Shown piece after piece: positions 38,069 to 48,336 of a DNA stretch of 64,000 nucleotides. The DNA is from a virus. Each line of letters opens with the position of its first letter. The stretch's first letter is position 1. Location of the stretch: the IMG/VR virus record IMGVR_UViG_3300033047_000016; one strand, given 5' to 3'. The notes under the pieces were generated by a model that had not been told where the DNA came from, searched no databases, and saw nothing but the letters and a program-made list of their open reading frames with translations. Both the position numbers and the translations under genes were made by a program.

Positions 38069-38323
38069 TTATTCAATAACTGGCTCTTCAATGATACACC
38101 AATGGGACGGTATCCATTCAAGCTCCACTTCTTCTGTTTCCATGTCCCAACAACACCCGCGTGCACAGCGGACTTTTATTTCTCTGGTCATTACCATACC
38201 TTCTTCAGTACGGTACCAACGGCCATCCATCAGGATCGCCATCTGTAGTTGTTCATCTTGGGACCACGTCAATATTTCTTCGCCGTGGTTTGGGCGGCGG
38301 CTTTCAACCGCTATCCAGTTCAT
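38069..38323 (-). CDS. DUF551-like hypothetical protein
   Basis: MNWIAVESRRP...PSHW motif. Confidence 0.6.
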   Translation of the reverse strand: MNWIAVESRRPNHGEEILTWSQDEQLQMAILMDGRWYRTEEGMVMTREIKVRCARGCCWDMETEEVELEWIPSHWCIIEEPVIE

Positions 38324-38748
38324 GCTGCTGCCCTCGTGACAGTTTCGTGACAGCTTCCCGACATCTTTGTGACATCTTCGGTGTCGAACCACTCGGTGAC
38401 GGCGTCAGCCGTGATCGTTTTATCGTGATACTTCATCAAGAGCTTGTGCACTCGTCCGATGAGTTTTCCACGTGTGTACGGGTCCAACCGTGTATTTCGT
38501 TCAATGGTGCAATACGCATGCCCTTTAATGAAACTCCGCGCAAGCTGTGTAGCCCGCGATTCCCACCGGACGATTCCGATGCGATGTTCATAAAGGTCTT
38601 GTCGTTTGCGTGCGCACGCTGCACCTTCTTCTGCCTGCTGGTGTTCAGTATACCAATTGGCGGTGCGTTTCAGTTTCAATTCCTCGCGGCGAATGATCTG
38701 TGCTTCTACGGCGAGTGATTTTGCTTTGATCTTAAGTTCGATTGACAT
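38320..38748 (-). CDS. hypothetical phage protein (SD hidden in a hairpin)
   Basis: MSIELKIKAKSLA..HRIGIVRWESRATQLARSFIKG..Y..IE; GGAGG SD. Confidence 0.75.
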   Translation of the reverse strand: MSIELKIKAKSLAVEAQIIRREELKLKRTANWYTEHQQAEEGAACARKRQDLYEHRIGIVRWESRATQLARSFIKGHAYCTIERNTRLDPYTRGKLIGRVHKLLMKYHDKTITADAVTEWFDTEDVTKMSGSCHETVTRAAA

Positions 38749-38755
38749 TTTTATG

Positions 38756-38826
38756 CCTCCATATTTACGTTTCAAATAGTGTGTAATGAAACGTCGCTAT
38801 CATGGAGGTTTTTCGATCTACAACAT
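38756..38826 (-). promoter_or_regulatory. ATG-TTG-TAG leader plus anti-SD hairpin (putative readthrough-sensing switch)
   Basis: AAGGAG-ATG TTG TAG; stems CCTCCATG/TATGGAGG and ACGTTTCA/TGAAACGT. Confidence 0.65.
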
Positions 38827-38862
38827 GGCCTTCTCCTTTTCTTCTGGTCTTGGTTACAAATT

Positions 38863-38936
38863 TGGTGCGCCCGGTGGGAGTTAAACCCACTTAAAACTGT
38901 TTTAGAGGCAGGTGCATTCCCCAATGCTACAGGCGC
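38863..38936 (-). tRNA. amber suppressor-like tRNA (CTA)
   Basis: GCGCCTG/CGGGCGC acceptor, loop CT-CTA-AA, weak anticodon stem, CCA. Confidence 0.75.
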
Positions 38937-38984
38937 TTACTCGTATCAACATACACGTGATTCGCGCAGTGTCAAGGATTATTT

Positions 38985-39056
38985 TGGCACTCGGTGGGAG
39001 AGTCGAACTCCCCAAGCTGGCTTCGTAGACCCGCCACCGGTTCCGCCGGACCAAGT
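38985..39056 (-). tRNA. tRNA-Arg(ACG), non-canonical fold
   Basis: CT-ACG-AA loop, TTCGA, CCA. Confidence 0.8.
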
Positions 39057-39086
39057 ATTGATGCAACCGAAGGTCACACAATTTAT

Positions 39087-42808: not shown

Positions 42809-43783
42809 TTAAGTTCTGGCGCGAACGCCCATCTGAATTCCGGCCAAGTCGGCTGGTAGCCACGTCGCTGCCGTATCAGGGTTTGTAAGGTATTCGTCCA
42901 TATACCATTCACCAAACAACCCAAGGGATATATCTGCCCCATCTTGCGTGGTTCCGCCCTCATACCTGAAGAAGTGGTTCATTGACGCCAAACCTGACGC
43001 CCCTCTTTGTGCGTGTGATTGAATAACTATCCGGTTAATAATGTCTCCACCAGATATGTTATCCAAGTTGCTGAGGCCAAAAGACACCCGCTCGTTAAGA
43101 ACATCTGTTGATACTCCCGTAGCAAGAGAATCATCCACAACACTGGCGACTGTTCCGTCCCACTGCTTAAATACACCAAATGATTGCGGCTTCAATTCAC
43201 GCAGCCTAAAACCACGCGTGTCTTCGTCCGCGACAATTATTTCTGAACCATATACAGTTGGCTCCACTGCGTCTATTGGGTTACTTATTTCCAATGACGT
43301 TGGGTTGGTTTTGCCGAGCGTATTAAGTACCGTTTGCTGGAACTGCAATGCACCGCCAACGTATGCACTAACACGGATATCTGTTGTCCCAGTAACAATT
43401 ATTTCAACGTCTACGGTTATTGGTGTTCCATTGGGAATCAGCGTTCCGCCGGATTCCACCACCGTATCGCCTCTAGCAAAGAAAGACATCAGCGTGTTGT
43501 CTAGCTGCATCTGAAAAATGTCGTTGCTGCCAGCGTCTCTGACCGTTGCTATAGGTTGATCATATAGCGTTTGGTTGACAGCAGCTATATCGACCGTGAC
43601 TACCCAGTGCAGCCACGTCGTAGTTCCGGCTGCGGCATCGAAACCTAATGAAGCGATCTTGCCTGCCGCAAGTTGATATGCTTCGGCAACGCGTGTGTTG
43701 TCGAACTTACTTCCATCGGTGGTCATAACCCCGCCGAACGTGGTTATATCAGCGCGCGATGTTGCTATTCGTAATATTGACAT
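42809..43783 (-). CDS. tail-associated protein, paralogue of 4076..5080
   Basis: Similar length and shared motifs (W.H; IIV.D; NP.T...W...DL.G...GV). Confidence 0.7.
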   Translation of the reverse strand: MSILRIATSRADITTFGGVMTTDGSKFDNTRVAEAYQLAAGKIASLGFDAAAGTTTWLHWVVTVDIAAVNQTLYDQPIATVRDAGSNDIFQMQLDNTLMSFFARGDTVVESGGTLIPNGTPITVDVEIIVTGTTDIRVSAYVGGALQFQQTVLNTLGKTNPTSLEISNPIDAVEPTVYGSEIIVADEDTRGFRLRELKPQSFGVFKQWDGTVASVVDDSLATGVSTDVLNERVSFGLSNLDNISGGDIINRIVIQSHAQRGASGLASMNHFFRYEGGTTQDGADISLGLFGEWYMDEYLTNPDTAATWLPADLAGIQMGVRART

Positions 43784-43792
43784 TATATGATC

Positions 43793-44134
43793 CTATGTTG
43801 TTATAGCATACATCGTAGTCGATGCTGCTGCAATGTTCCCACCACTGGCTCCTGTTCCGCCCATCAATTCGTATACAGAAAATAGTGATGAAGATATTCC
43901 GATGTTTCCGGGTACACCACCTCTTAGAACGAACACTGCCGTATATGGTACGATCACTCTGGGTAAATTTCCGCCACCAGCAACTGCATAAACGTATGTT
44001 CTATTGGTGTATATTCTGTCTGGTGACGTTCCTGCCACCATATACATATTGGTACTTTGCGCAAACACAGCAAAGTCCGGGTCCGTGTTGGACGCTTGGA
44101 CGATATAGTGGTTTAGGTTGAATACTTCAATCAT
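43793..44134 (-). CDS. beta-strand repeat structural protein
   Basis: Repeated ..Y.V.G strands resembling the N-terminus of 3158..4072. Confidence 0.55.
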   Translation of the reverse strand: MIEVFNLNHYIVQASNTDPDFAVFAQSTNMYMVAGTSPDRIYTNRTYVYAVAGGGNLPRVIVPYTAVFVLRGGVPGNIGISSSLFSVYELMGGTGASGGNIAAASTTMYAITT

Positions 44135-45318: not shown

Positions 45319-45589
45319 GGTGAAGCCCTTTCTATGTTGTGTAGGCGAGCAGTTTTACATGATGCCCAGCATAAGGTCAAAACAGAATTAACTGCCCTAA
45401 CTCCACCACCATGCCAAGTCTGGGGCATGGACCAAAGTTCCCGGTTACGCGTCCGGGGTGCATCTGACGTGTGCACCGCTCTGTTTATATCGCCGATCCG
45501 ATTTTTTAAATTACCCTCGAATTACAGGCTTACGGTCGGTTGTCAAGGGCGCTCCATTTAAAGTATGCGCCGCCGGTTCCGCAAAATAA

Positions 45590-45997
45590 GGTGAGGGATT
45601 CTGTTGCTAGGTTCCCTCGGACCCCCTCACTGATCGGCGTCTGCATTTAATCCTTACGGATTAAGCTGCGATTGCCATTCCAGTAGGTGCTGCATTTACA
45701 TTTGCTGCATTTACTTAAGTTCACAGTCCTAAGACTATTTGCCCAGATAACGTTTAGGCCAACCCGACACGCCGCTTTCCCTATTCCATCCTGTCGATCC
45801 TAGTTCGCCCCCATCAAAAGACCCTTTCGAGGCATCGCCAGAATACCCCGCATGGAGCACCTAACCTCTTCCCTCTCCGCGAGAAACGGATGTGAGCGTA
45901 ATGTCTCTCCCTCGTAAGGGCCTTATGGTGGAGGCGTCGGGTACTGCCCCCGAGTCCAGAAATGTCTTCACGATTGAAGATATACGTGTGTTTCGTA
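45590..45997 (-). ncRNA. ssrA: two-piece (circularly permuted) tmRNA
   Basis: Acceptor piece ends GACTCGGGGGCAGTACCCGACGCCTCCACCA at 45926. Intervening segment, then the coding piece starts GGGGGCGAACTAGGATCGAC at 45812 (G3-U70). Tag AANVNAAPTGMAIAA* at 45708-45661. Confidence 0.92.
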
Positions 45998-46003
45998 CGA
46001 ACC

Positions 46004-46032
46004 AATATAGAGTGATTCGTTTAGTATGTCAA
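46004..46032 (-). promoter_or_regulatory. sigma70 promoter of tmRNA
   Basis: TTGACA-17-TATATT with CGAATCA in the spacer. Confidence 0.8.
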
Positions 46033-47464: not shown

Positions 47465-48336
47465 CTATTTAGTAGCCTGAGAATACAGCGTACAGTGAGA
47501 ACCTTCTGGACCGTACCAAACCCGTTTCACAGGGCATGTTAATCCTTCTTCCACATGCGTGCCGAAGCTACACACGTAGTCCTCAATGGTGCGATTTATA
47601 AAGGTCTCGCGTTTGACCTGTCACCATGTGCTACTCGTCTGTTGATCCTCCGCCTGCCTTCCGACAGTTATTCACCGCTAAGCGCTTACGTTTTCTCTTC
47701 AAACAAACATCGTCGCCTTGCGAGCTATGATGCACCGTGTTCCAAAAGGCACGGTATTAACCACCTTTCACACATGACCGAACTAGTCTTTTGCTTTTAT
47801 ATGACGTGAAGGATTTGAACCCTCTCCGACAGCGTTGAAAGCTGTTGCTCTACCAATGAGCTAACGAAGTTAACCCCAAAGATGTGCTAGTCCGATTGCT
47901 CCGAAGGTTTTTGACCCTAAGAATACAACACACCTCATGTCTTTCGGCTTGCGACCTAATTAACGGCTCTTCAGGTCTCCGGGGATTATCTCCCCTTATT
48001 CCCTTGAACTGCATGCTGCCCTCTGCCGCGAAGCATCGAACTAGTCATGCCACCTATTGATCATCATCGCTCGTCCGGCTGGCATGTCATGAGCGCAGTC
48101 GCCAAACTGCTTCTATCCACCCTTTTGGGGCTTCAATTATCCTTTCGGACACATGACCCAGACTTACCGACTATCGCCACTCTGGTAAGTGACGCACAAC
48201 GCTACGGATATTCCCGGCGTCGTCGATCTAGGCTTGCATAAATGGACTGTTTCCAGCGGATACTTGGGAAGCACCCTTTGGGCCTGTTGCCAGACTTACC
48301 CTTGAAGACCTCATGCGGCCTTATTCCCGAAGGAAC
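47465..48336 (-). ncRNA. probable GOLLD RNA (~870 nt)
   Basis: ORF-free, has its own promoter, lies in a tRNA island. Segments resemble remembered GOLLD motifs (GTGTTGTATTC..CAAAA..GAGCAA..GCACATC; GCAAAAGAC..CGGT..GTGAAAGGTG.TTAATACC; 3' CTGTATTCTCAG). Contains an embedded tRNA-like domain. Not verified by covariance search. Confidence 0.72.
47801..47870 (-). other. tRNA-like domain (TCA anticodon) embedded in the large ncRNA
   Basis: GCTC-ATTGGTA-GAGC, ACAGC-TTTCAAC-GCTGT, GAGGG-TTCAAAT-CCTTC; broken acceptor, no CCA. Confidence 0.75.

Follow-up and report, generated by a model that had tools for sequence, protein, structure and literature searches.

In the translational attenuation of the ermCL-ermC, cat and cmlA leaders, the Shine-Dalgarno (SD) sequence of the next gene is hidden in a hairpin until a drug-bound ribosome, halted at a particular codon of the leader, opens it. 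In prfB, the gene of release factor 2 (RF2), an early in-frame UGA is the site of a +1 frameshift; the slippery CUU UGA is helped by an internal SD 3 nt upstream, and the shift regulates the release factor itself. Arginine-dependent x-Pro-Pro sequences at the ends of small upstream open reading frames (ORFs) are proven arrest sequences (PMC10951233, PMC12992588); ApdA, ApdP, ApcA and SecM RAGP are arrest peptides of this RAPP/RGPP type (PMC10951233, PMC7897499, PMC12992588), the core of which is a C-terminal Arg-(Ala/Gly)-Pro-Pro with an essential arginine (PMC12992588). Switches engineered for unnatural amino acids carry a TAG in a leader peptide, which makes expression suppressor-dependent (PMC6412442, section 6), and in phages with suppressor tRNAs a phage tRNA(CUA) alters the reading of UAG in a standard-code host, an effect proposed to time expression (bioRxiv 10.1101/2021.08.26.457843). 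Here we consider a locus in a 64,000-nucleotide stretch of viral DNA, IMG/VR record IMGVR_UViG_3300033047_000016 (this whole stretch is called the window below), in which a tRNA gene with anticodon CUA is followed by a nine-codon leader containing an in-frame UAG and then by a 142-residue gene, called gene X here, whose SD is predicted to be buried in a hairpin. Judging from the sequence and its comparison with relatives, we think it quite probable that this arrangement works as a translational attenuator with readthrough of a stop codon as its input, so that X would be made only when UAG is suppressed. Our literature search found no description of a natural stop-gated leader switch.

The elements of the locus are listed in the table below, and several of them had been claimed in an earlier note made from the letters of this DNA. 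The leader, with its AAGGAG and the codons from ATG TTG TAG to CCT CCA TGA, reads at 38826-38800 just as the note had it, and the hairpin said to hide the SD of the 142-residue gene was found in the minimum-free-energy (MFE) and centroid folds alike. Its outer stem pairs CCTCCATG (38808-38801) with TATGGAGG (38763-38756), the latter containing the SD GGAGG, which stands 7 nt before the ATG of X at 38748; the hairpin thus pairs CCUCCAUG with UAUGGAGG, the SD of X, and an inner stem joins ACGTTTCA to TGAAACGT (38794-38787 with 38774-38767). The part from TAG to ATG folds with -19.2 kcal/mol (z = -3.9). In the window, CCUCC serves as both the Pro-Pro codons and the anti-SD. The anti-SD does begin 9 nt past the TAG, as had been claimed, which places the start of the stem at +16 from the P site when a ribosome terminates at UAG. 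Going by the usual footprint, such a ribosome, with UAG in its A site, extends to about +15 from its P site and would thus end immediately before the stem. The pattern SD-ATG-(0-8 codons)-TAG-(2-6 codons)-CCN CCN-stop occurs once in the window (both strands, 128 kb), at 38826, and in shuffles it occurs 0.005 times per window strand.

Table. Elements of the tRNA(CUA)-leader-X locus and the ORF that follows it (window coordinates).
Feature	Coordinates	Strand	Remarks
Sigma-70-like promoter of the tRNA-leader-X transcript	38948-38975	-	TTGACA 38975-38970, 16-nt spacer, TATGTT 38953-38948; 10/12 matches
Amber-suppressor-type tRNA	38863-38936	-	74 nt, CCA encoded; anticodon CUA 38905-38903; Rfam RF00005
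Leader SD AGGAG	38833-38837	-	6 nt before leader ATG; read directly
Leader ORF	38800-38826	-	ATG TTG TAG ATC GAA AAA CCT CCA TGA; 9 codons; ATG 38826-38824
Gating UAG of leader	38820-38818	-	
Pro-Pro codons of leader (CCT CCA)	38808-38803	-	
Second stop of leader (TGA)	38802-38800	-	
SD-sequestering hairpin (predicted)	38756-38808	-	5' arm 38808-38801 = also Pro-Pro-stop codons
Gated gene X	38320-38748	-	142 aa; no annotated family; helical hairpin + three short helices
84-aa ORF	38069-38323	-	ATG overlaps X TGA (ATGA)

The TTGACA promoter that the earlier note had put near 38970 is present there, with TATGTT at the spacing given in the table; the -35 TTGACA is kept in the three closest relatives of the locus (L075-L077), and L078 has TTGCAA there. 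The tRNA with a CUA anticodon, likewise claimed, is borne out by Rfam RF00005 (48.0 bits as against a gathering score of 29, E 7e-9, model positions 1-71, the full model), though ARAGORN at default settings does not call it. Its anticodon loop, CUCUAAA, has 7 nt with CUA at 34-36, U33 and a purine at 37; non-standard pairs stand at 27-43 and 31-39, both in the anticodon stem. The C31.A39 mismatch is shared by three of four close relatives, with the inner anticodon-stem pairs covarying (covariation seen in L076). When 29 tRNAs of the family are aligned as a cloverleaf, compensatory changes are seen in 13 of the 16 stem pairs and UCUAAA never varies, which argues that the gene is under selection as a tRNA. 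The family evolves like a working tRNA, and decoding activity is what we would predict of it. Some suppressor tRNAs of the family have 8-nt anticodon loops (CCCCUAAU, CCUCUAAC; L053 336-412, L065 122-196, L042 522-597); ARAGORN assigns 2- or 4-base anticodons to these three, so that standard tRNA finders under-count such genes. Quadruplet (UAGA) decoding, which these loops brought to mind, was rejected because the conserved Pro-Pro-stop lies in the zero frame, which calls for reading by triplets.

Among deposited phages, tblastn with X as the query gave three informative relatives, whose hosts belong to the Alphaproteobacteria (Ruegeria phage DSS3_MAL1), the cyanobacteria (Synechococcus phage BUCT-ZZ01) and the Gammaproteobacteria (Stenotrophomonas phage DLP5). 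In DSS3_MAL1, a tRNA annotated "Pyl", that is, with anticodon CUA, ends 114 nt before the X homologue; the leader between them, ATG AAG TCG TAG ATT CGT CCC CCT CCC TGA, reads MKS-stop-IRPPP-stop, and after it the anti-SD TCTCCTTGAT pairs with the gene's ATCAAGGAGA. BUCT-ZZ01 has an unannotated tRNA-CUA (confirmed by ARAGORN) followed by MGGDAS-stop-INLKPP-stop, and DLP5 has MK-stop-VYKPP-stop before the homologue, with a tRNA-Sup-CTA just after; as a search query, the DLP5 homologue matched only itself.

For a wider survey, loci were taken from IMG/VR via X and the family alignment, from contigs of close relatives, and from contigs of family members lacking the word MSIELKIK; the tallies are based on 77 non-identical upstream regions whose X homologues have 33-87% identity. 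An SD-led leader whose first in-frame stop is a TAG within 12 codons precedes X in 70 of the 77, and these leaders differ from each other at the nucleotide level. Pro-Pro follows within 8 residues past the TAG in 66 of these 70, and in 53 leaders it comes immediately before the second stop (TAA in 36, TGA in 13, TAG in 4), with a spacing of exactly three codons from TAG to Pro-Pro, like that of the window, in 37 and with R, K or H right before Pro-Pro in 45. The nucleotide right after the TAG is a purine in 66/70, a context that favours tRNA suppression, and the residue after the TAG is Ile or Val in 53/70. A same-strand tRNA-CUA is found in 64 of the 77 loci and ends 60-330 nt upstream of X in 62, the usual distance being about 110 nt, apparently in the same transcript. 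Within the 300-nt upstream zones (20.7 kb) the leader motif has 43 matches, and there are none in the other 427 kb of the loci. Close relatives, at 46-87% protein identity, have the leaders ML-stop-TKIPP-stop, ML-stop-INKPP-stop, MM-stop-IIKPP-stop and M-stop-VYRPP-stop, and the same design recurs in members found without the MSIELKIK pattern and in 26 further loci.

Folding was examined in 42 unique loci over the stretch from the first stop to the ATG of X. In 40 of the 42, pairing with bases 10-40 nt past the first stop involves 5 nt or more of the SD region, as against 14.6 loci on average, and 23 at most, when the intervening bases are shuffled. The hairpin arms differ widely between loci, yet they are complementary to each locus's own SD, and in L076 an A-U pair of the window is replaced, by a compensatory change, with G-C. 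Measured from the T of TAG, the arm begins 12-25 nt on in most of the 42 loci, with the second stop at +15 to +18, on the arm or just before it. Four folds have additional outer pairs that extend further; in all others the arm start is at least 12 nt from that T. The check that the earlier note had asked for, whether homologues keep leader and hairpin, is thus positive (leader 70/77, SD pairing 40/42), and its claim that UAG readthrough gates the 142-residue gene gains strong comparative support from these two counts together with those for Pro-Pro (66/70) and for tRNA-CUA (64/77).

The Pro-Pro codons call for separate consideration. All four proline codons are in use at both positions, and Pro-Pro is kept also where the stem begins only past the second stop (L008, L009, L016, L031, L042 and others), which argues that selection acts on the peptide or the way it is decoded. 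Since ribosomes are slow both to join two prolines and to release a chain with proline at its C-terminus, and since arginine-dependent x-Pro-Pro motifs are proven arrest sequences, we read Lys-Pro-Pro-UGA as a site of dwelling; Pro-Pro-stop probably stalls the ribosome and so keeps the stem open, instead of being a mere stopping place.

Starting from elements, conservation and geometry that can be read in the window and its relatives, we infer readthrough by this tRNA, a stall and an on/off outcome, along the following lines. One promoter would give one transcript carrying tRNA(CUA), the leader of nine codons and gene X. In the off state, ribosomes would start at the strong leader SD and be released by release factor 1 (RF1) at UAG, the third codon; the stem, starting at +16, would be beyond the reach of the terminating ribosome and stay closed, leaving X untranslated. 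In the on state, the charged phage tRNA(CUA) would outcompete RF1, and the ribosome would go on to read Ile-Glu-Lys-Pro-Pro up to the UGA, where it would occupy the 5' arm CCUCCAUG, the stem lying within its footprint. Since the Lys-Pro-Pro-stop site would be slow, owing to poor Pro-Pro bond formation and poor release after proline, the ribosome would dwell there, the SD GGAGG would be single-stranded, and a second ribosome could start X. Since production of X would require a suppressor that is both present and functional, X would be a read-out of UAG suppression.

Seen beside the systems introduced above, the locus resembles ermC, cat and cmlA in that a short leader ORF, preceded by an SD, is followed by a hairpin predicted to hide the SD of the next gene; the leader's own ribosome-binding site, the conserved SD-pairing hairpin and the holding-site geometry that one expects of a leader-peptide attenuator are all present in the window, and inducibility would be predicted. 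It differs from ermC and cat in that the holding site would be reachable only via in-frame readthrough of UAG and in that a dedicated tRNA gene is attached. With prfB it shares an early in-frame stop as a sensor, at which release factor and alternative decoding would compete to set the expression of a gene; unlike prfB, the alternative here would be in-frame reading by a suppressor, and the output would go through SD unmasking to a separate gene. A frameshift sensor of the prfB type was considered and rejected, the gate being UUG UAG A and the conserved Pro-Pro-stop lying in the zero frame. The likeness to the RAPP peptides consists of a basic residue and x-Pro-Pro as the last residues of a small upstream ORF, through which the downstream gene would be regulated, and a true R-G-P-P or R-S-P-P is found in the relatives L006, L047 and L030, R-x-P-P occurring in only few. 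However, in the window the motif is E-K-P-P directly before the stop, the nascent chain has 8 residues, neither a secretion signal nor a Sec/YidC target is present, and the arrest-like motif is located behind a stop codon. Because E-K-P-P is noncanonical with respect to the RAPP core, we do not file the leader in that family. The engineered TAG-in-leader switches are synthetic and built on trp/tna transcription attenuators, whereas the present one would be natural, translational and provided with its own tRNA. The recoded phages have many in-frame TAGs in late genes, and such a leader is not described there (bioRxiv 10.1101/2021.08.26.457843); in the window, by contrast, TAG is an ordinary stop and a single regulatory UAG stands in the leader. 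The nearest natural parallel for a stop codon as sensor is therefore the RF2 frameshift and the nearest parallel in design the engineered switch, and what appears to be new is the input, an arrest site placed behind an in-frame stop that matches a co-transcribed suppressor tRNA.

Not all loci follow the common plan. In L030, L036, L040 and L052 the readthrough frame passes through the stem to a TGA overlapping the ATG of X, and L050 and L054 have it in the same frame as X. A gene of ~65 codons ends in the gating TAG of L017, and readthrough would append KVFKPP to its product; L021 has M-S-TAG and then ~80 codons to VPP-stop, with no tRNA-CUA within 1.5 kb. These variants retain the same predicted gating logic. 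Three loci, L055, L066 and L067, have a TGA gate instead of TAG. In L066 (918-1358) X comes directly after a permuted tmRNA (Rfam, 123 bits); L055 has, upstream of X, a tRNA-like end similar to that of L066, seen by eye only and called by no tool; and in the TAG-gated L052 (1056-1491) X follows a tmRNA that ARAGORN calls only at a low threshold. UCA-anticodon tRNAs, at one stage assigned before the TGA-gated leaders of L055 and L066, were withdrawn, Rfam showing the permuted tmRNA in L066. The position of X after tmRNA in this subgroup, together with the TGA gates, hints at a link of X to termination or rescue in general.

A number of these observations weigh against the attenuator scheme laid out above. 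The window has E-K-P-P, whereas ribosome arrest has been demonstrated for R-(A/G)-P-P (PMC12992588), and with this noncanonical motif and a nascent chain of just 8 residues the strength of the stall is a guess. In view of its two non-standard anticodon-stem pairs and its rejection by ARAGORN, the window tRNA can be credited with no more than putative activity. Only the TAG-to-ATG part is unusually stable, the whole folded region of 131 nt not being so (z -1.2). Four loci have a second TAG at the end of the leader, which the suppressor would read too, and there are deviating loci, such as those with no tRNA-CUA within 1.5 kb, with no leader (L043), or with a TGA gate beside a tmRNA. The loci were retrieved through conserved peptide words of X, so that the sampling is not unbiased; the support altogether is comparative, and the mechanism is a prediction. 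One might even suppose that the mini-ORF and the pairing arose by chance in the spacer behind a tRNA gene, or are relics, with the UAG a plain leader stop and X constitutive. Short ORFs and SD-like runs are indeed common in spacers, and the full 131 nt fold with no greater stability than shuffled sequence; the rarity of the motif in shuffled window strands, the confinement of its 43 matches to the upstream zones, the retention of the design in 70/77 loci despite nucleotide divergence, and a hairpin pairing far above that of shuffles nevertheless leave this explanation hardly any probability.

Two other explanations accept the switch and change one of its parts. Readthrough might gate X without any stall, if any ribosome entering the 5' arm opens the stem or couples to X by termination-reinitiation, and Pro-Pro might then be kept for other reasons, for example as anti-SD. 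The double use of CCUCC in the window fits this idea, as do about a dozen loci that have no stop after Pro-Pro and whose frame crosses the stem to reach a stop overlapping the ATG of X or runs into X, and L066 and L069, which are without any Pro-Pro; the presence of Pro-Pro in 66/70 leaders, spelled with all four synonymous codons and retained also where the stem starts past the second stop, and the basic residue before it in 45/53, which recalls the arginine-dependent RAPP-type arrest motifs (PMC12992588), make us regard it as rather unlikely. The other possibility is that the switch reports RF1 activity or termination in general, for instance when RF1 is depleted or inhibited in infection, the tRNA being linked for some other reason. 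Readthrough is a competition between RF1 and a decoder, either side of which can shift the outcome, a tRNA-CUA within 1.5 kb is missing from 8 of the 70 TAG-gated loci, and the TGA-gated L055, L066 and L067 have no UCA tRNA nearby, L055 and L066 adjoining tmRNA-like sequence instead. Against this stand the same-strand tRNA-CUA in 62 of the 70 TAG-gated loci, mostly ~110 nt upstream and apparently co-transcribed, the persistence of the link in phages of Alphaproteobacteria, Gammaproteobacteria and cyanobacteria, and the purine after UAG that favours suppression by tRNA, so that we rate the RF1 explanation as improbable, somewhat more so than gating without a stall. By sequence alone, RF1 limitation and suppressor supply cannot be told apart as the input.

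Searches of X against Pfam, PHROG, NCBIfam and PADLOC gave no family. A profile of 44 members collects 3274 clusters (50% identity) at E<=1e-3 among 1.84 billion representatives, nearly all of 110-185 aa, and among 185,579 prokaryote species the family has only two weak matches, both on metagenome-assembled contigs; the X family is large, unannotated and essentially confined to phages. AlphaFold2 models X with a mean predicted local distance difference test (pLDDT) score of 89.7 as two long helices, residues 3-35 and 39-75, that form a hairpin, with three short helices in addition. The best match of the profile in the PDB has only E 0.42, Foldseek with the model found none in the PDB at E<=0.001, a structure search of BFVD returned only uncharacterised phage proteins, and one of the Atlas gave TM <0.5 throughout. 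A likeness to ESCRT-III/PspA was rejected, the VIA-align Z of ~9 to generic helical hairpins being below the level that is meaningful for helical folds. Conserved in the family are the N-terminus, M-S-(I/V)-E-L-K-(I/V)-K-x-K-x-L, the motif H-R-x3-V-R-x-E-x-R-A-T-x-L-A at the base of the hairpin and, as a third site, a KYG motif, the hairpin tip being variable in length. The first eight residues (window 38725-38748, minus strand) are almost invariant in a family otherwise 35-45% identical, and their serine is encoded by AGT and by TCT, which points to constraint on the protein. In L075-L077, the closest relatives, a short ORF overlaps the stop of X as the 84-aa ORF does in the window, that of L075 with a faint DUF551 match; in the wider set of loci no conserved gene follows X, the neighbour varies, and the 84-aa ORF is not kept beside X.

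The window, with G+C of ~50%, is apparently part of a large phage genome, and DNA near-identical to it is present in seawater and subsurface metagenomes, these contigs being too alike to be informative; no sequencing run recorded as RNA was found to contain the stretch. The source phage is marine and has a normal genetic code. All long ORFs are on the minus strand, and ARAGORN makes 35 tRNA or tmRNA calls in the window. Recoding of TAG was rejected: table 11 leaves the long ORFs intact, the longest having 1854 aa, and TAG is in normal use as a stop (TAA 52, TGA 39 and TAG 14 in a crude gene set). With a standard code, the suppressor tRNA would not serve for decoding a recoded genome, at least within these 64 kb. 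The only pair of same-frame ORFs split by a TAG in the window lies at 42809-44134 (minus strand), where a 113-aa ORF with a TAG stop is in frame with the next gene; a readthrough fusion was rejected there, the second gene aligning full-length to phrog_6368 from its own ATG, so that these are two genes. In a search of the window for a second switch gated by UGA or UAA, no candidate had an SD. A 71-nt tRNA with anticodon UCA at 47800-47870 (minus strand), labelled SeC by ARAGORN, may be an opal suppressor or a doubtful call, and no UGA-gated Pro-Pro leader with an SD to match it was found in the window.

Other features of the neighbourhood, all on the minus strand, may be noted. ARAGORN finds the window's permuted tmRNA at 45570-46018, 7 kb from X. 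Within the tRNA array, a 133-aa ORF at 39446-39847 matches the YspA/cpYpsA-related SLOG family (PF10686, E 2e-11), and members of this family stand upstream of X in the relatives L075 and L077 too. Directly upstream of the promoter lies a 72-nt tRNA-like element (38985-39057) with 84-88% identity to unannotated stretches in the Ruegeria/Rhodobacter phages DSS3P8, vB_RpoS-V10, RpAliso and RcXuper; in Rfam it has only a weak tRNA-Sec match (16 bits), and its counterpart in relatives (L076 81-153, L077 705-779) is called a tRNA-Arg(ACG) at a lowered ARAGORN threshold.

Lastly, we consider what such a switch would mean. It should be readily testable with reporters and toeprints, and as a compact element, tRNA and leader taking ~190 nt, it may become a part for genetic-code-expansion work. 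If the attenuator scheme is true, the locus would be a natural sensor of stop-codon readthrough; to our knowledge, such sensing is found only in engineered circuits and, more distantly, in RF2 autoregulation. Many standard-code phages, as far as we know, carry suppressor tRNAs without a known target, and the switch would supply one in the form of a conserved regulatory UAG. With its expression tied to suppression, the X family of 3274 clusters would become a candidate player in termination or ribosome rescue. We also entertain, tentatively and as a reading with a fairly low chance of being right, that the module forms a self-sufficient circuit governing what UAG means, in which X would feed back on termination or suppression; X could bind RF1, the ribosome or the suppressor tRNA, or could handle ribosomes that have passed UAG stops. 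Should this be so, phages with an otherwise standard code would control suppression by feedback, and the tight link of X to suppressor tRNA, or to tmRNA in a few loci, would mark a new class of translation-termination factor.

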